A DNA stretch of 32,000 nucleotides. Origin: Acutalibacteraceae bacterium (lineage in GTDB: Bacteria; Bacillota; Clostridia; Oscillospirales; Acutalibacteraceae). Each line of letters opens with the position of its first letter. Positions within the stretch are counted from its first letter, which is position 1. The stretch spans positions 55,031 through 87,030 of the forward strand of contig JAZQVR010000003.1 in NCBI GenBank assembly GCA_045631965.1. The letters run 5' to 3'. The notes beneath the pieces were generated by a model, which had not been told where the DNA came from, ran no database searches, and saw only the letters and a program-made list of their open reading frames with translations. Position numbers and translations under genes: made by a program. This document shows, in pieces, positions 1,589 to 12,331 of the stretch.

Positions 1589-1632
1589 TTGACATTCAGG
1601 AGCGGTAAGTTTATAATATACTCAACCGCTCC
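1589..1632 (+). promoter_or_regulatory. Consensus sigma-70 promoter embedded in an 8-bp inverted repeat, antisense to the surrounding operon
   Basis: TTGACA (1589-1594), 17-nt spacer, TATAAT (1612-1617). GGAGCGGT (1599-1606) and ACCGCTCC (1625-1632) bracket the -10 box and the predicted start site. Confidence 0.55.
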
Positions 1633-2350: not shown

Positions 2351-2611
2351 TTGACTATAACTCCACCCCGAGATTATCGAAATGAGGTGTTTTACGTGTC
2401 CGTATCAGCTGTAATAAAGCAAAGGCTTTCGGAGCTTAATATGACACAAACGGAACTTGCCGAAGCTGTTGGTACTACTCGGCAGAATTTTGCAAACAAA
2501 ATGGCAAGGGATAACTTTTCATCAAAGGAATTGTGCTCCATTGGTGAAGTCTTAGGTGTTAAGCTTGTTTACAAAGATTCAACAGGCAAAGAATATAATA
2601 TTGAGTATTGA
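2351..2611 (+). CDS. XRE-family helix-turn-helix protein (likely GTG start at 2396, 71 aa)
   Basis: The segment IKQRLSELNMTQTELAEAVGTTRQNFANKM is a typical XRE HTH. GAGGTG lies 6 nt upstream of the GTG at 2396. Confidence 0.75.
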   Translation: MTITPPRDYRNEVFYVSVSAVIKQRLSELNMTQTELAEAVGTTRQNFANKMARDNFSSKELCSIGEVLGVKLVYKDSTGKEYNIEY

Positions 2612-2614
2612 GAG

Positions 2615-2836
2615 ATGCATACAATGACAAAGATTGAAGAACGCAGGAAGGCTGCAGGTATGTCCCGGTCAGAACTCTCTCGTCAGTCTGATGTATCGCT
2701 CCGAACCTTGGAAGATTGGGAACACGAAAAAACAATACCAACAAATGTGTATCAGCTTGCCAAGGTTGCAAAGGCTCTGAACTGCCTGATTGAGGATTTA
2801 ATTGTTATTGAAGATTTAACAAGAAAGGAACGATGA
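2615..2836 (+). CDS. XRE-family helix-turn-helix protein (73 aa)
   Basis: The segment RRKAAGMSRSELSRQSDVSLRTLEDWE is a typical XRE HTH. It starts 4 nt after the previous stop codon. Confidence 0.75.
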   Translation: MHTMTKIEERRKAAGMSRSELSRQSDVSLRTLEDWEHEKTIPTNVYQLAKVAKALNCLIEDLIVIEDLTRKER

Positions 2837-3069
2837 TAATGCCGATTAAATTTTCTGATAATCACATCTGCGAAAAGTGCGGAAAGATTTTTGAATGGAA
2901 TTATTTTGAAAGCGTTAGAACTCGTATAGATTCTCCGTACTTTGTTGTTGAAAAAATGCCCACCGACAAAACTTTGGTGCATCGTTTTGAAAAAAGCGAT
3001 GATGGTTATATGGTTGCTGTTAATTGTCCGTATTGTGATTTTTACAACCGATTTGTTTTTACAGATTAA
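2833..3069 (+). CDS. Small zinc-ribbon protein (78 aa)
   Basis: Two CxxC pairs (CEKCGK and CPYCDF). Overlaps the upstream stop codon (ATGA). An alternative ATG at 2839 has better Shine-Dalgarno spacing. Confidence 0.65.
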   Translation: MIMPIKFSDNHICEKCGKIFEWNYFESVRTRIDSPYFVVEKMPTDKTLVHRFEKSDDGYMVAVNCPYCDFYNRFVFTD

Positions 3070-3245
3070 AACAACTCGCTCCGCTGCTCTCTGTTCGTCA
3101 AATTCGCAGTTTGCGTTCGATTTGGTGTAAACGTTCAATGAAAATAAAAAAGCGGTTAAACAGCCGTTTTTAGCTGAATAACCGCATACACTTATTTTAG
3201 TGCAAAGCACTTGACAATATACCCCAAGGGGCATATAATAAAGGT

Positions 3246-3338
3246 GCAAGGCGTTACCGATAGACGGTTTCGCCCTCAATAGTCGAAGATTAAGATTTAA
3301 CCGCCAACTTTCTCAGGGTCCGGCGGTTATTTCTTTTT
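3246..3338 (+). ncRNA. Putative antisense sRNA (type I antitoxin-like) of cassette 1
   Basis: Perfect consensus promoter TTGACA (3211-3216), 17-nt spacer, TATAAT (3234-3239). Terminator stem AACCGCC/GGCGGTT (3299-3305/3322-3328) plus ATTTCTTTTT. No ORF. The 3' end overlaps the last ~12 nt of the convergent 32-aa ORF. Confidence 0.55.
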
Positions 3339-3425
3339 ATGCTCAAGGGCTGTAAAAACAACCCCGATAATGCCGATAATAACAAGTGCGAATTGTAATA
3401 AATCCGAAAGTGTTATGTATTGCAT
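3327..3425 (-). CDS. 32-aa hydrophobic peptide MQYITLSDLLQFALVIIGIIGVVFTALEHKKK (type I toxin-like)
   Basis: ATG at 3425 preceded by GGGGGTGGTG. One predicted TM helix and a lysine tail. Has its own consensus promoter, stands alone, and converges with the sRNA. Too short for the supplied ORF track. Confidence 0.6.
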   Translation of the reverse strand: MQYITLSDLLQFALVIIGIIGVVFTALEHKKK

Positions 3426-3493
3426 AAGCACCACCCCCTTGCGAGGGCAAAGAGTGAAACCGCCTACCGTTCAGGCAACGCCTTACGCAGGGC

Positions 3494-3522
3494 ATTATAG
3501 CCTTTATTTGATGCTTTGTCAA
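3494..3522 (-). promoter_or_regulatory. Perfect consensus promoter for the cassette-1 toxin mRNA
   Basis: On the minus strand: TTGACA (plus TGTCAA 3517-3522), 17-nt spacer, TATAAT (plus ATTATA 3494-3499). Predicts a 5' UTR of about 60 nt. Confidence 0.65.
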
Positions 3523-3608
3523 TATCCGAAGGGAAGTATCAGAAGACGGTGCTGCTCTTGTTATTTGCGGCAAAATCAGGCACTTTTATTGATAAATAAC
3601 TTTTGTGT

Positions 3609-3650
3609 GGCTGCAAGCTTTGTTTAAGGCTTGCGGCCGCTTTTGATTTT
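3609..3650 (+). terminator. Orphan plus-strand intrinsic terminator in a 440-bp non-coding stretch
   Basis: 10-bp stem GGCTGCAAGC/GCTTGCGGCC. Its one non-Watson-Crick position is a G-U only in the plus-strand RNA. GCTTTTGATTTTT follows. I found no convincing promoter upstream. Confidence 0.35.
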
Positions 3651-3866
3651 TATCACCACCGGCTAAGCGTAGTCACATCAGATAAGTTCAACTGTAGTGC
3701 TTAGGCTGCCGAGTGAATTGTTTTCGCATTGCTTTTACTTGCAAAAGGTACTGTATAAGCATTTTGCCATTGCGGGGCAAGGAAGGTGCGGAAGTTGCCT
3801 CTGAAAAATAAAAATAAATTTTGCAGTGGCGGGACACACAACAGGCTCCCAGAAGGAAAAAAAGTA

Positions 3867-4121
3867 TTATTTTATTGAAAATTTCACATCAGCCGCACAA
3901 TCTTTTGCTGCTTGCCCAAGGATAAAACCTGCAGTCAATGCTTGTGTTGCAATTTCTTTACTAATCTCGTCAACATAATCTTCTAAAATTAAGCTAAGTT
4001 CGTCATCTGAAATACCGAGCGATTTTAAATAATCGACAAGCTTCTTTTCACGTTCTGTTCGCTCGTCTGTTTCGCAAGCAAAATCGACGAAATTTTCACC
4101 TTTGACGGTAATAACAAACAT
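3867..4121 (-). CDS. Hypothetical acidic protein (84 aa)
   Basis: Intact ORF with AAAGGAG 8 nt upstream of the ATG. Confidence 0.6.
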   Translation of the reverse strand: MFVITVKGENFVDFACETDERTEREKKLVDYLKSLGISDDELSLILEDYVDEISKEIATQALTAGFILGQAAKDCAADVKFSIK

Positions 4122-4192
4122 AAATAAATCTCCTTTACCTTTTTAAAATTGTAACTTCTTTTGCTATTTTTAATAGCGTGTTGAGGATCCGC

Positions 4193-4546
4193 TCAAGAAC
4201 CGATCATACCAACCCCTACAGCGCGGTTATAAAGCTCAATCATAGCCTCGCGATAAAGCTTATAACAACTATCGCGGCTAAGGTCCATATCCTTGTTTAT
4301 TTTTCGCCAGGATAAGCCTAAAATAAAACGCTTTTCAATGAGTGTTTTTTCCCGGCTAACATCGAGTAACACAATAATCCGCTCAACGTCGCGCATAATA
4401 GCTTGACTGCGTGTACGCTGCTGCCGGGCATAGGCTGTATCTATTCCTTCAAGTGAGCGGCAGTTTTCCTCTGCCGGTAAATACCGGCTTAGATATTCTT
4501 TTGTTGTTTGAAGCTTGAAGCGGTCTATTTCTGATAATTTTTTCAT
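4193..4546 (-). CDS. Sigma-70 region-4-like / ArpU-RinA-like transcriptional regulator (117 aa)
   Basis: The C-terminal segment EKRFILGLSWRKINKDMDLSRDSCYKLYREAMIELY resembles a sigma region 4 HTH. Strong Shine-Dalgarno (GGAGGT). Sits downstream of the replication module, as in Gram-positive satellites and phages. Confidence 0.6.
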   Translation of the reverse strand: MKKLSEIDRFKLQTTKEYLSRYLPAEENCRSLEGIDTAYARQQRTRSQAIMRDVERIIVLLDVSREKTLIEKRFILGLSWRKINKDMDLSRDSCYKLYREAMIELYNRAVGVGMIGS

Positions 4547-6570: not shown

Positions 6571-6808
6571 GGCGAATGCAGCTCACGTTTGATAATGCAT
6601 CTGTATCAGTTACAAGCTGGCCGCTCAGATATTGCTGCAAGGTGTCAAAGTTTACAAGTATTTTATTGCCGGCGCGGATATGCGGCAGTGCTCCGGAGCG
6701 AACAGCTCGGCGTAAGGCTGATTCTGTAAATGAAGTACCGCTGTCAATTTCTTTCAGCTCAGCTATTGCTGCCTTAATTGTTCGCATACGTGGTGTAGTG
6801 TTGCTCAT
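6560..6808 (-). CDS. Excisionase-family / MerR-like HTH DNA-binding protein (82 aa)
   Basis: The segment FTESALRRAVRSGALPHIRAGNKILVNFDTLQQYL is typical of excisionase-type HTH_17 domains. Its start is coupled to the upstream stop (TAATG). Confidence 0.7.
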   Translation of the reverse strand: MSNTTPRMRTIKAAIAELKEIDSGTSFTESALRRAVRSGALPHIRAGNKILVNFDTLQQYLSGQLVTDTDALSNVSCIRRVG

Positions 6809-6984
6809 TAATTCGCCCCCTTCAACTCTAAAATGATAGCTCTGATTTCTGCTTTTTCTTCATCCGAAAGTTCTTTACGAAGTTTACGGCTGAAATGACT
6901 ATCTGTGATACCGAGTTTATCAGCTATTTGCCAAAGTTTTACACCTGCATTCATAGCTTCGCTTTTAATGTCTAAATTGCTCAT
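6808..6984 (-). CDS. Unannotated 58-aa Cro-like HTH protein MSNLDIKSEAMNAGVKLWQIADKLGITDSHFSRKLRKELSDEEKAEIRAIILELKGAN
   Basis: ATG at 6984 with GAGGTGA 5 nt upstream. The segment VKLWQIADKLGITDSHFSRKL looks like an HTH. First gene of the leftward operon, divergent from the repressor. Below the 60-aa cutoff of the ORF track. Confidence 0.65.
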   Translation of the reverse strand: MSNLDIKSEAMNAGVKLWQIADKLGITDSHFSRKLRKELSDEEKAEIRAIILELKGAN

Positions 6985-7008: not shown

Positions 7009-7070
7009 TTGACACAAAGCAACCTCTGTGTTACAATTCAAATTGTAATGCAACAGCATCAACTTGTCAA
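7009..7070. promoter_or_regulatory. Interdigitated divergent promoter pair (genetic switch)
   Basis: Plus strand: TTGACA (7009-7014), 17-nt spacer, TACAAT (7032-7037). Minus strand: TTGACA (7070-7065), 17-nt spacer, TACAAT (7047-7042). The two -10 boxes form the arms of the perfect palindrome TTACAAT-TCAA-ATTGTAA (7031-7048). Confidence 0.65.
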
Positions 7071-7131: not shown

Positions 7132-7776
7132 ATGTTATGTGGTGATAAAATAGGAAAAAGACTTAAAGAATGCAGGCTGTTATTGGGAGAAAAACAAACA
7201 GAAATTGCAAAACTCCTCAATGTTCAAAGACAAGTTATTAGTTATTATGAAACCGGATTACGTATACCTAATATAAATGATTTGGTTATGTTAGCCGAAC
7301 ATTTTGGCGTGTCAGTCGATTATCTTTTGGGATTATCGGAATACAAGAGCAGAGATGCTCAAAAAGCTGCAGCGTGTAAAGTTACGGGTTTAACAGAAAT
7401 GGCAGCTGATGTTTTGGAAAAGTGGAATAAGCAAGGTGATATTGACTATCTGTCAGTAGTAAACTTGCTTATAGAAAGTCACGGGTGTAAGGCGATAAAT
7501 TTAGATACACCAACTGTTAAATATGATTTGAATCTGATTGCTAAAATAGCAACATATTTATTTGTGAATATAAAAAATGATCCTGAGACTTCTGTATCGA
7601 TTTCTGATAATAATTGTTTATCTAACATGAATTCCGGCATTTCTTATGATATTAAGATAAATCAATCAGATCTTATTGAAAGAATTTTGCTTGATAGCAT
7701 AGTTGATTCGCTTAAAACCGCTCGAAAAATTATTTCTGCAAGTAAAGAAGGTGCAATCGGTGGCGAACATAACTAA
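7132..7776 (+). CDS. XRE/cI-like repressor with a non-peptidase C-terminal domain (214 aa)
   Basis: The N-terminal segment IGKRLKECRLLLGEKQTEIAKLLNVQRQVISYYETGLRIPNINDLVMLAEHFGVSVDYLLGL is an XRE HTH. GGAGG lies 8 nt upstream of the ATG. I saw no S24 Ser/Lys (LexA-like) motif in the C-terminal ~140 aa. Confidence 0.75.
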   Translation: MLCGDKIGKRLKECRLLLGEKQTEIAKLLNVQRQVISYYETGLRIPNINDLVMLAEHFGVSVDYLLGLSEYKSRDAQKAAACKVTGLTEMAADVLEKWNKQGDIDYLSVVNLLIESHGCKAINLDTPTVKYDLNLIAKIATYLFVNIKNDPETSVSISDNNCLSNMNSGISYDIKINQSDLIERILLDSIVDSLKTARKIISASKEGAIGGEHN

Positions 7777-9243: not shown

Positions 9244-9323
9244 CGCTCGTTTTAGCTTGCTTTTTAAGCCGCTCGATAAAAAAGAAAAAGCCCAAAACCG
9301 TTGATTTAAAGCGGTTTTAGGCT

Positions 9324-9369
9324 TGGCGCGCTGGAAGGGACTCGAACCCCTGACCTTTTGGTTCGTAGC
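9324..9369. repeat. attR core within the tRNA gene
   Basis: Identical to 698-743. Confidence 0.9.
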
Positions 9370-10903: not shown

Positions 10904-12331
10904 TCAGAATTGGAAGTAAAGGAAGGGGTTATAGCTGTCGCCTACAAGTAAAGCTGTAGAGAGCAGAAGCATTGCGCAGGGATAAGCTGTTCTGCATACG
11001 GTTACAAATGTTGCACCTGCTTTGCTCTTTACGAATATACTGTTGAGTATGCCTTTTATGAGCTTGGCAATCGGTATGCAAGCCAGCACAGCGACAATCA
11101 GCAGGAAGATATGACTCTTGAAATCTATATCTGCTTCGTAGCTTGTGAACGGATTTCCGTTGCCGCCAAACATACCTTTGAGTGCAGTGAACATAGTGGA
11201 AATGTTTTCAAACTTAAAGAGTACCCAACCAAAGAAAACAATAACCAACGTATAGATGTGCGAGAATATTCTCGGAAGTTTTTCAAGTATTTTGCCGAGG
11301 AACAGCTTTTCGAGGGCGATAAATATGAAATAATAAAGGCCCCAGAACATATAGTTCCAGCTTGCGCCGTGCCAGAAACCTGTGAGGAACCAGGTTATAA
11401 GCAGGTTTACTATGGTGCGTGCACCGCCTTTGCGGTTGCCGCCGAGAGGAATGTATACATAGTCCCGGAAGAAAGAGCCGAGCGAAATGTGCCACCTTCT
11501 CCAGAATTCGCTTATTGAACGTGAACAGTAAGGATAATCGAAATTCTCTTTGTAGTGGAAACCGGTCATTCGTCCCATACCTATCGCCATATCTGAGTAA
11601 GCGGAGAAATCGAGATATATCTGCAGAGAAAAGAACAGCATACCGAGCCACAGTGCAGATGCGGGTCGTGCCTGAATATTCTGAGCGAAAAGAAGAGAAT
11701 CTGCCATTTCGCCGCAGCTGTTTGCAAGAAGTGATTTTTTGGCAAGACCTGTAGCAAAGCGGATTATGCCTGCTGCCATATCGGATTCGTTTACACTTCG
11801 GCTGGATATTTCACGTGCAATATCCTTATATCTGACAATCGGACCTGCAACGCACTGATGGAACAGGCTTGCGTAAAGCAGGACGTTGAAGAAATTTCTT
11901 TCTGCTTTTACATCGCCTCTGTAAACATCGACAACATAGGTCAGAAGCTGGAATGTATAAAAAGAAATACCTATAGGCAGGGCAATCTGAGTTATTACGG
12001 ACGGATGGCCTGTTACGGACTGAAGGTTTTCCTGGAAAAATGTACCGTATTTGAATATGCCGAGCAGACCGAGGTCGACAACACAGGTTGTAATAACGGC
12101 AAGCTTTGATATAAGACTGCCTCTGTTTTTTTCGACGGCAAGCGATAACAGCCAGTCGATAAAACTCATCGCGACAAGCAACAATACATATTTTGGCTCA
12201 CCCCAAGCATAAAATACGAGGGAAAAAATGAGCATTATCGCATTTCGCACGGGTGTGCTTTTTGCCAGATAATACAAGGCGATATTCAAAGGCAGGAAAA
12301 GGAATACAAAAAACAAACTGGAAAATACCAT
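10904..12331 (-). CDS. MBOAT-family O-acyltransferase (AlgI/DltB-like)
   Basis: Polytopic membrane protein with the conserved segment FWRRWHISLGSFFRDYVYIPLGGNR, which includes the MBOAT catalytic His region. Confidence 0.85.
   Translation of the reverse strand: MVFSSLFFVFLFLPLNIALYYLAKSTPVRNAIMLIFSLVFYAWGEPKYVLLLVAMSFIDWLLSLAVEKNRGSLISKLAVITTCVVDLGLLGIFKYGTFFQENLQSVTGHPSVITQIALPIGISFYTFQLLTYVVDVYRGDVKAERNFFNVLLYASLFHQCVAGPIVRYKDIAREISSRSVNESDMAAGIIRFATGLAKKSLLANSCGEMADSLLFAQNIQARPASALWLGMLFFSLQIYLDFSAYSDMAIGMGRMTGFHYKENFDYPYCSRSISEFWRRWHISLGSFFRDYVYIPLGGNRKGGARTIVNLLITWFLTGFWHGASWNYMFWGLYYFIFIALEKLFLGKILEKLPRIFSHIYTLVIVFFGWVLFKFENISTMFTALKGMFGGNGNPFTSYEADIDFKSHIFLLIVAVLACIPIAKLIKGILNSIFVKSKAGATFVTVCRTAYPCAMLLLSTALLVGDSYNPFLYFQF

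Follow-up and report, generated by a model that had tools for sequence, protein, structure and literature searches.

A probable type I toxin–antitoxin cassette, with predicted pairing of the toxin message ends, on an integrative island of an Acutalibacteraceae bacterium

Introduction

Does a cassette of ∼380 bases, in which two convergent consensus promoters flank an open reading frame (ORF) of 32 codons, constitute a toxin–antitoxin (TA) system of type I, and do the two ends of its toxin message pair with one another? The cassette lies in a 32-kb stretch of DNA from an Acutalibacteraceae bacterium (assembly GCA_045631965.1, contig JAZQVR010000003.1, positions 55,031–87,030 of the forward strand), referred to here as the window; all positions are window-relative. 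An initial annotation of the window had proposed a type I TA-like cassette of the TxpA/RatA kind, with an antisense RNA convergent on the 3′ end of the toxin gene, and this is supported by all that can be read from sequence. We conclude that the cassette is probably a type I TA system of the TxpA/BsrG/SprG kind carried on an integrative island, a reading to which we assign a probability of roughly 0.7.

A conserved family of cassettes

The cassette belongs to a family for which we recovered 36 related loci with the same architecture, identified here by L numbers. A HMMER scan of 1.84 billion representative proteins gave seven relatives at E < 1e-3, and a degenerate DNA pattern designed from the invariant positions of these seven yielded, in one metagenome scan, 31 loci, each encoding an MQYVT...KK(K) peptide of 32–34 residues, either complete or altered by a frameshift or truncation. 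L002 was reached through the primase, and L035–L038 through two protein clusters. Four clusters among 5.8 billion proteins represent the toxin family, all of them nameless and free of Pfam matches, and the family is effectively unannotated.

Neither cassette nor peptide was found in phage and plasmid collections (blastn in distant mode with positions 3100–3700; tblastn of the peptide), and exact-sequence look-ups of the 32- and 35-residue forms of the peptide, the primase and one chromosomal gene returned no match. The degenerate peptide pattern had no match in viral contigs, and the primase had no viral relative. One candidate from the viral contigs, L001, detected through an exact 18-mer of the hairpin that contains the Shine-Dalgarno (SD) sequence, was rejected as an unrelated chance match. 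A primase search of the genome collection returned two loci only, one of which (L002) carries the cassette.

Nearly all loci keep both promoters, the peptide, the hairpin that hides the SD and a terminator shared by the two transcripts. The start ATG-CAR-TAY is retained in all relatives, the peptide following the pattern MQY[VI]T...KKK. The −10 element of the toxin promoter ends 64–71 nucleotides (nt) before the ATG, and the promoter of the putative antitoxin small RNA (sRNA) is found at the same relative position, matching the consensus at all 12 positions in 18 of 32 loci and at 11 or more in 25 of the 32. The 5′ untranslated region (UTR) of the toxin begins with GUGGCACUACC or a covarying variant at the predicted start, continues with the motif CGGUAGGCGGUUAC, and is followed in conserved order by the anti-SD GCCCUC, a 4-nt loop, the SD, the ORF, a terminator (T1) on the stop codon and a U-rich linker. 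Beyond the linker lies GAGGGCGUAACCGUCUAUCGGUAGUGCCAC, the antisense of the sRNA 5′ domain, and then the antisense of the TATAAT/TTGACA promoter. The G-run of the SD is conserved in all loci, and the sRNA core CCGATAGACGG is nearly invariant.

The surroundings of the cassettes vary. They adjoin integrases in L006 and L023, a prophage tail module in L019 and a terminase in L038, and are also found at fixed core-chromosome sites (GNAT/CrtO/GH38, QueT and tRNA_edit/FGGY). Tandem cassettes are present in L007, L032, L033 and L035. The second copy in L007 (780–1120 of that locus, minus strand) keeps the promoter, 5′ UTR, SD hairpin, terminator, sRNA domain and long-distance helix described below and encodes an unrelated 24-residue peptide, MEYLVIMAVILLFATGYIYTVKKK; the RNA scaffold appears able to host different toxin peptides.

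Both tandem copies in L032 (1480–2200) have a 1-nt deletion before the lysine tail, which removes the EHKKK-stop ending. In six loci of the L008/L012-type chromosomal lineage at the GNAT/CrtO/GH38 site (L008, L009, L010, L018, L020 and L028) the sRNA promoter matches at 9 of 12 positions and the toxin −35 element is weakened; all of these except L018 also have the sRNA CCCUC motif mutated, to GCUCUC. The L032 copies and these six loci look like decaying cassettes, with joint decay of promoters and motif in the six.

A predicted long-distance helix in the toxin transcript

The initial annotation had further suggested a 5′–3′ lock, in which the ends of a toxin mRNA that reads through its terminator pair with one another. 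This pairing gains comparative support from a helix of ∼29 base pairs (bp), 16 pairs with changes on both sides and an excess of G.U. When the 348-nt toxin-sense transcript from the window is folded, its 5′ UTR pairs with the segment antisense to the sRNA 5′ domain (z = −9.0), in a helix of 31 bp, six of them G.U, with an energy of −48.7 kcal/mol compared with −35.8 kcal/mol on the opposite strand. On an alignment of 30 distinct toxin-sense cassettes (A2) we imposed a structure in which T1 and the SD hairpin are joined by a long-distance helix of 11 + 13 + 5 bp, and standard pairs occupy 91.7% of cells. Double-sided changes are seen at 16 pairs, against 6.3 ± 1.4 in column shuffles, none of 500 shuffles reaching 16, and sliding the partners by 1–3 columns lowers pairing to 36–54%.

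The outer helix shows double-sided change in 6 of its 8 pairs. At least ten distinct helix sequences occur, all of them still complementary; they include GUGGCAC/GUGCCAC, GUGGUGC/GCACCAC, AUGGCAU/AUGUCAU, AAGGCGUUGCC/GGUAACGCCUU, CAAGGAGUUAU/AUAACUCCUUG, GGAGGUAUUACC/GGUAAUGCCUCC and AAGGCACAGCC/GGCUAUGCCUU. The mismatches between the arms are strongly directional, with 139 G.U cells against 13 A.C in the toxin sense (21 against 7 when counted per column and type), and in 29 of 31 haplotypes the toxin-sense duplex exceeds its opposite-strand counterpart in stability. Two G.U pairs of the helix are invariant. The asymmetry of T1 runs in the opposite direction, its C.A mismatches in the toxin sense becoming G.U in the sRNA sense (30 cells against 1), and simple base composition therefore does not explain the G.U bias of the helix.

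The inverted repeat could instead act at the level of DNA only, the toxin mRNA ending at T1 and forming no 5′–3′ RNA helix. It might then be the relic of an inverted promoter–leader duplication that created the sRNA gene, the two copies being kept alike by gene conversion, or two operator sites bound by a single DNA-binding protein; even so, the cassette would qualify as a type I TA system, with RNAs sharing only the ∼45-nt overlap at the terminator. The two promoter–leader units are clearly homologous and inverted in orientation, T1 is followed in many loci by a U-rich stretch in the toxin sense (UUUAUUUCUUU in L007, for instance), and gene conversion would yield covariation between the arms of such a repeat. 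The arms are not homogenised, however: a conserved 5–6-nt bulge sets them apart, as do two invariant G-to-A differences, which result in G.U pairing in the toxin sense only. A DNA-level role also predicts symmetry between the strands, at odds with the preponderance of G.U over A.C, and the opposite asymmetry of T1 removes composition as an explanation. Terminators are present past the sRNA promoter on the toxin strand, and no DNA-binding protein accompanies the cassette across the contexts examined. We regard a purely DNA-level role as quite unlikely; the patterns in the aligned arms favour selection for an RNA helix in the toxin mRNA over gene conversion of a DNA repeat, although the many closely related rows leave the latter a small probability.

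An invertible-promoter switch was also considered and rejected. The promoters lie outside the repeat arms and face inwards, so that flipping the core would restore the arrangement already present; moreover, the match between the arms is only 73–78%, with indels.

Features of the cassette in the window

The elements of the cassette are listed in Table 1. Both promoters that the initial annotation had described as perfect TTGACA-17-TATAAT sequences are found at the positions given for them, as are the ORF with its transmembrane helix, lysine tail and strong SD. Such 12/12 promoters are rare, with three in the whole window compared with 0.011 expected under uniform base composition. The peptide has a 20-residue hydrophobic core and the HKKK tail, its ATG being at 3425 and its TAA at 3329–3327. 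With 32 residues and a single transmembrane helix it fits the general definition of type I peptides, which are hydrophobic and shorter than 60 residues. A GTG at 3434 falls within the SD, and as a start codon it is not conserved among relatives.

Table 1. Positions of cassette elements in the window; roles and RNA ends are predicted from sequence features.
Feature	Position	Strand	Description
Antitoxin sRNA promoter	3211..3239	+	TTGACA (3211-3216)-17-TATAAT (3234-3239), 12/12
Toxin promoter	3494..3522	-	TTGACA (3522-3517)-17-TATAAT (3499-3494), 12/12
Toxin ORF	3327..3425 including stop	-	32 residues, product MQYITLSDLLQFALVIIGIIGVVFTALEHKKK; one transmembrane helix, HKKK tail
Shine-Dalgarno GGGGGTGG	3431..3438	-	5 nt before ATG
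Anti-SD GCCCTC	3443..3448	-	Hairpin with SD, loop GCAA; predicted in minimum free energy folds
Toxin 5′ UTR, 5′ strand of long-distance helix	3450..3486	-	UTR ∼60 nt; predicted transcription start ∼3487
3′ strand of long-distance helix	3246..3277	-	Exact antisense of sRNA 5′ domain; only in toxin transcripts reading through T1
Predicted ORF-less antisense sRNA, ∼93 nt	∼3246..∼3338	+	5′ hairpin, A-rich linker, terminator; ends inferred
sRNA 5′ hairpin GGCG..ACCG-AUAGA-CGGU..CGCC	3250..3274	+	Followed by CCCUC, same motif as toxin anti-SD
Shared bidirectional terminator T1	3299..3338	both	Stem 3299-3305/3322-3328; sRNA T-run 3330-3338
Second terminator T2, toxin-sense read-through	3141..3185	-	Hairpin 3152-3185, then UUUUUUAUUUU (3151-3141); inverted repeat I8

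The plus-strand RNA had been expected to lack an ORF, and the region from ∼3246 to 3338 contains no ATG and folds as a 5′ hairpin and a terminator (z = −3.7). Its terminator, as anticipated, overlaps the end of the toxin gene: the end of the T1 stem coincides with the toxin stop codon (3329–3327), and the T-run is the complement of the lysine codons (AAAAAGAAA). The predicted 3′ end of the sRNA thus lies 9–12 nt within the toxin ORF, an arrangement conserved in the family. The resemblance between the sRNA 5′ region and the toxin 5′ UTR is likewise real, appearing as inverted repeats I2, I14 and I7, although its coordinates had been placed 1–2 nt off; the segment AAGGCG...CCCTC occupies 3248–3277, not 3249–3279.

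The Shine-Dalgarno hairpin and the predicted effect of the helix

The SD hairpin (GCCCUC-loop-GGGGGU) is predicted in every lineage folded, with an SD unpaired probability of 0.00–0.15 in most. Over the 30 aligned loci 91–93% of its cells are paired, and two pairs have changed on both sides (helices 5 and 6). We compared partition-function folds of the short, T1-ended toxin mRNA with those of the long form for nine lineages. The hairpin is mostly closed in both forms, the SD staying paired in the long form in seven of the nine, and the first seven nucleotides of the mRNA pass from 0.3–0.55 unpaired in the short form to ∼0 in the long. In these models the fold-back would mainly bury the 5′ end of the mRNA, resembling the upstream helix of par RNA I more than the fold-back inhibition (fbi) lock of hok. 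The hok-type likeness put forward in the initial annotation is supported for the 5′–3′ pairing; the SD is predicted to be hidden with or without the fold-back, a situation nearer to that in par RNA I.

The helix might, conversely, activate translation. The 3′ GAGGGC would then mimic the SD, capture the anti-SD and free the ribosome-binding site, and the sRNA, by covering this motif, would allow the anti-SD to return to the SD, much as SR4 acts on bsrG. The G-rich 3′ motif does pair with the anti-SD itself in the best duplex of L027, of L032 and of the L002/L035/L038 lineage, and in the long form of L027 the unpaired probability rises from 0.15 to 0.42 for the SD and from 0.30 to 0.70 for the AUG. 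The CCCUC motif of the anti-SD is, moreover, present in the sRNA of every lineage. In the window and most lineages, on the other hand, the SD hairpin remains closed in the long form by both minimum free energy and ensemble prediction (unpaired probability 0.00–0.03), and the 3′ motif pairs with the neighbouring CUCUU instead. The locked and activated states are close in energy, and prediction therefore cannot decide between them; we consider activation unlikely.

The predicted antisense RNA, T1 and possible read-through

The consensus structure of the sRNAs from 19 relatives comprises the 5′ hairpin ACCG-AUAGA-CGGU and an 8-bp terminator. An Rfam search of positions 2500–4500 (E ≤ 10) gave matches at noise level only, none overlapping the cassette. 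The plus-strand RNA could have been simply the 3′ UTR of the operon at 2833–3069, the outcome that the initial annotation had named as fatal to its proposal. This was rejected, since the RNA has a consensus promoter of its own that is conserved beside unrelated neighbours, and promoter and terminator, conserved in 25–32 loci, keep fixed positions in many unrelated contexts.

By hairpin strength and U content, T1 is consistently the stronger terminator in the sRNA direction. Over the 30 loci it averages −15.0 kcal/mol and 7.9 U in 10 for the sRNA, as against −10.7 kcal/mol and 5.5 U in 10 for the toxin transcript, whose tail in the window is AAUCUUAAUC. In about two thirds of lineages a hairpin and U-tract occur on the toxin strand within or just past the sRNA promoter. 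Given a weaker T1 in the toxin direction and a second terminator past the sRNA promoter, read-through to a full-length toxin mRNA of ∼345 nt is plausible. The motif GGCTGTTTAACCGCTTT, which in the window corresponds to T2, follows the cassette in the window island, in L002, and in L035–L037, where the cassette stands between unrelated chromosomal genes.

Two further hairpins were seen near the sRNA promoter. The promoter spacer in the window (3217–3236) forms a stable toxin-strand hairpin, AUAUGCCC-CUUG-GGGUAUAU, and equivalent hairpins are found in L002 (z = −6.8), L006, L011, L021 and L033; as a family feature the hairpin was dropped, not being general (mean z = −1.1). In L006, L014, L017 and L032 a toxin-strand hairpin spans the −35 element and is followed by a U-run, and therefore looks like a terminator of the long toxin mRNA.

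Relationship of the peptide to known toxins

The initial annotation had proposed that the peptide be searched against small-toxin families, and this search returned sub-threshold relatives. The window peptide matches Hol_Tox (Pfam PF16935) at 14.1 bits (E = 0.045), below the gathering score of 23.3, NCBIfam PepG1 at E = 0.069 and PHROG 3488, annotated 'holin', at E = 1.8e-4. Hol_Tox is matched by 5 of 9 family members (best E = 2.1e-5) and PepG1 by 7 of 19 (best E = 2.2e-4). TxpA, BsrG and SprG1 score 31–35 bits against Hol_Tox; since all three pass its threshold, Hol_Tox represents the TxpA/BsrG/SprG family. Alignment of our family profile with these three toxins by hhalign gave a probability of 90% (E = 1.4e-6), with invariant Phe residues aligned. 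Members of the TxpA/BsrG/SprG family are sometimes annotated as 'holin-like toxins' (Fozo et al., PMC2887945). No family member scanned matches Fst_toxin (Pfam PF13955), which Fst itself does match. The profile comparisons suggest that the peptide is a distant relative of the TxpA/BsrG/SprG toxins, below the threshold of membership, a kinship to be read with the bias of hydrophobic sequences in mind.

A peptide of this type need not be toxic. It could belong among ordinary small membrane proteins, or among the holin-type lysis factors of phages, and be under antisense control with no role in addiction or defence: the candidate type I peptide YhzE-2 is not toxic on overexpression (Fozo et al., PMC2887945), the best PHROG match bears the name 'holin', and several copies of the cassette sit at core-chromosome sites. 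The closest profiles are nevertheless those of the proven type I toxin families TxpA, BsrG and PepG1, and a consensus antisense promoter, an SD hairpin and a 5′–3′ helix are hallmarks of genes with a harmful product. Decay of the kind seen in L032 (frameshift) and in the six L008/L012-type loci (weakened promoters) is expected of toxic genes, and none of the loci examined is placed in a lysis module. A non-toxic role accordingly seems improbable to us.

Several points weigh against our reading of the cassette as a TxpA/BsrG/SprG-like system with a paired toxin message. Many of the 30 aligned loci are closely related, and cell counts therefore give too high a figure for independent events; some of the covariation could be mimicked by an inverted DNA repeat evolving in concert; and the hairpins of the sRNA itself show almost no covariation, because they are nearly invariant. 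The long-distance helix requires read-through of T1, which we infer solely from hairpin strength and U content, and in the L027, L032 and L002/L035/L038 lineages the predicted pairing of the 3′ segment with the anti-SD is compatible with lock and activation alike. The peptides stay below the Hol_Tox threshold, at 14.1 bits for that of the window and 15.8–22.5 bits for members re-scanned singly, and profile scores tend to be inflated when peptides are short and hydrophobic. For every member, the two transcripts, the toxicity of the peptide and its rescue are predictions.

Proposed mechanism

We propose that the toxin promoter drives an mRNA for the 32-residue membrane peptide, in which the upstream GCCCUC would hold the ribosome-binding site in a local hairpin, and that the convergent promoter drives the ∼93-nt ORF-less RNA, ending at the hairpin on the toxin stop codon. 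Comparison across the family suggests that T1 is an efficient terminator for the sRNA and an inefficient one for the toxin message, much of which should therefore run on, for ∼150 nt further and across the antisense of the sRNA gene, to the second terminator. In the long mRNA the first ∼35 nt would pair with the segment antisense to the sRNA 5′ domain, over ∼29 bp that include several G.U pairs, closing the molecule into a ring with its 5′ end buried and the SD hairpin still shut. By analogy with RatA/txpA, SR4/bsrG and par, this closed form may represent a stable, poorly translated store of toxin message.

The predicted sRNA could pair without mismatch with the final ∼95 nt of the long toxin mRNA and with ∼45 nt of the short one. 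As the exact complement of the 3′ strand of the helix, it should displace the imperfectly paired 5′ UTR, giving a duplex of ∼95 bp, and by analogy this competition for the 3′ segment would expose the 5′ end of the mRNA. By analogy with txpA/RatA (PMC6563280), the long duplex would be degraded by RNase III, and toxin synthesis would be kept off for as long as the element is present. Were the supply of sRNA lost, the longer-lived toxin mRNA would, again by analogy, be translated.

A more speculative extension of this scheme, which we offer tentatively, is a three-way RNA switch: the sRNA and the toxin 5′ UTR, being near-copies of one another, would compete for one 3′ segment of the read-through mRNA. 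Its states, a possible rather than a probable set, would be a closed, 5′-protected ring, an sRNA-bound form with its 5′ end exposed and open to cleavage by RNase III, and, for some lineages, an mRNA whose 3′ segment captures the anti-SD, turning translation on. If this is true, the antitoxin acts by molecular mimicry of the toxin leader, a topology that, to our knowledge, has not been described for type I systems, and such a switch would occur widely among Clostridia of human and animal guts, whether on islands, in prophages or at core-chromosome sites.

Comparison with known type I systems

The closest parallels are TxpA/RatA and BsrG/SR4 from the skin element and SPbeta of Bacillus subtilis. 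Shared features are a small transmembrane peptide with a lysine-rich tail in the Hol_Tox neighbourhood, a convergent antitoxin RNA that covers the 3′ end of the mRNA and extends into the ORF, location on integrated mobile elements, partial sequestration of the SD, and cleavage of the duplex by RNase III, which is to be expected here (PMC8594479, PMC6563280). In contrast to these systems, the cassette peptides are sub-threshold for Hol_Tox (14–22.5 bits against 23.3), the ∼93-nt sRNA has no similarity to RatA or SR4, the antitoxin 5′ domain is antisense to the partner strand of a conserved 5′–3′ helix, and the hosts are gut Oscillospirales rather than Bacilli. We know of no 5′–3′ helix of this sort for txpA or bsrG.

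SprG1/SprF1 of Staphylococcus aureus provides the best NCBIfam match (PepG1), and resembles the cassette in the residue pattern I-T-x-S-x-x-L-Q-F-x-L...KK, an antisense RNA over the 3′ end and a location on a genomic island. The PepG1 score is 12.8 bits, however, against an equivalog cut-off of 70, the RNAs are unrelated, and the cassette has no second in-frame start for a longer peptide.

The par locus of pAD1 from Enterococcus faecalis resembles the cassette in its convergent promoters, single bidirectional intrinsic terminator and SD-hiding stem-loop, in its toxin of ∼32–33 residues, and in an intramolecular helix, the upstream helix (5′-UH), that buries the extreme 5′ end of the toxin mRNA (PMC7472228). 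In RNA I of par this helix protects the 5′ end and prolongs the life of the mRNA (PMC7472228). The cassette differs in that its peptide lacks the Fst motif, its repeats are inverted whereas those of par are direct (DRa, DRb), its sRNA overlaps the end of the ORF, and the segment predicted to pair with its 5′ end is located beyond the terminator, within sequence antisense to the sRNA gene, and not before that terminator.

These likenesses raise the question of whether the cassette might work as par does, the 5′ ends of its two RNAs pairing in trans over the repeats, as in Fst/RNA II, and blocking the start site after contact between the terminator loops. The cassette does have in common with par its convergent promoters, one bidirectional terminator for both genes, a stem-loop that sequesters the SD and sequence repeats at the 5′ ends (PMC7472228). 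Its repeats, however, are inverted instead of direct, and both 5′ regions are therefore of the same sense. Co-folding of the RNAs, which the initial annotation had recommended, gave no support to pairing in trans: when the sRNA 5′ domain was folded with the toxin 5′ UTR the ddG was −0.7 to −7.6 kcal/mol, no better than that of shuffled sRNAs (−3.9 to −6.9 kcal/mol). With no Fst_toxin match either, we hold a par mechanism to be extremely unlikely; the lack of an Fst toxin and the inverted orientation of the repeats place the cassette outside the definition of par.

In hok/sok (R1) and aapA1/IsoA1 (Helicobacter pylori), as is proposed here, the full-length toxin mRNA is closed by a 5′–3′ long-distance interaction (PMC8594479, PMC6733600). 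In those systems, however, the antisense RNA targets the 5′ part of the mRNA and 3′ processing activates translation, whereas the sRNA of the cassette covers the 3′ element and its SD is predicted to be hidden by a local hairpin with or without the helix; the toxins are unrelated, and the hosts Gram-negative. The cassette appears to fall outside the hok/sok definition, because its antisense RNA is at the 3′ end and its SD block is predicted to be local.

The type I toxins of Clostridioides difficile (CD0956.2/RCd10, CD2517.1/RCd8 and others) come from the same class, Clostridia, and likewise have convergent overlapping genes, frequent prophage location, a hydrophobic N-terminus and a lysine-rich C-terminus (PMC6563280). 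They differ in being 34–59 residues long and in having been reported without homology to known toxins (PMC6563280). Profile searches gave no link between them and the cassette family, which matched Hol_Tox and PepG1 only.

Taken together, the comparisons suggest that the cassette works like TxpA/RatA or BsrG/SR4, with the addition of a par-like bidirectional terminator and 5′-end helix. What sets it apart is an antitoxin that nearly copies the toxin leader and covers the sequence with which this leader pairs at long range. Type I systems of Clostridia have been studied essentially only in C. difficile (PMC6563280), and a literature search of limited coverage found no description of such systems in Oscillospirales; the cassette defines an unannotated, probably type I branch in uncultured gut Oscillospirales and their relatives. 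The family offers a ready search pattern for the annotation of gut genomes, and the cassette is a candidate stabiliser or defence module for small integrative elements. It also presents a clean comparative case of an mRNA 5′–3′ helix whose 3′ strand is what the antitoxin covers, and its many natural compensatory variants make it a good system in which to ask how an antisense RNA that binds the 3′ end controls the 5′ end of a message.

The integrative island

The cassette is carried on an 8.6-kb integrative element inserted in a tRNA-Arg(ACG) gene. The island is bounded by a perfect 47-nt direct repeat (697–743 and 9323–9369), the right copy being the 3′ part of the tRNA gene, and it encodes a tyrosine integrase, XRE/CI-type regulators and a D5_N/DUF5906 primase. 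A related island is present in an Acutalibacteraceae metagenome-assembled genome (L002), with an 80% identical primase and a homologous cassette at the same place.

To the left of the left attachment site (attL) are two to three degenerate repeats of ∼180 nt (275–355/635–715, 394–483/575–664 and 336–367/513–544). They hold fragments resembling tRNA 3′ ends, uncalled by ARAGORN, and may be scars of earlier integrations at the same tRNA.

Directly upstream of the cassette, the ORF at 2833–3069 (plus strand) encodes a 78-residue, zinc-ribbon-like protein with two CxxC pairs (CEKC...CPYC) and no Pfam match; a different CxxC protein is encoded nearby in the L002 island (11959–12276).

The third 12/12 promoter of the window (1589–1617, plus strand) lies in the gap between the minus-strand island genes 1273–1566 and 1690–1983, and is directed antisense into the 3′ end of a Gp157-like gene. 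The region transcribed, ∼1624–1700, would form two hairpins, ACCGC-UCCG-GCGGU and CUUAUCUG...CAGAUAAG, and the region is 86% identical in the L002 island (13046–12891). The RNA may be a second antisense or small RNA of the island.

Finally, two back-to-back promoters that match the consensus at 11 of 12 positions (TTGACA-17-TACAAT; 7009–7037, plus strand, and 7070–7042, minus strand) separate a divergent pair of genes, one for a 58-residue helix-turn-helix-like protein (6808–6984, minus strand) and the other for a 214-residue XRE/CI-like protein (7132–7776, plus strand). Promoters and genes are arranged here as in a lysogeny-type genetic switch of the island.

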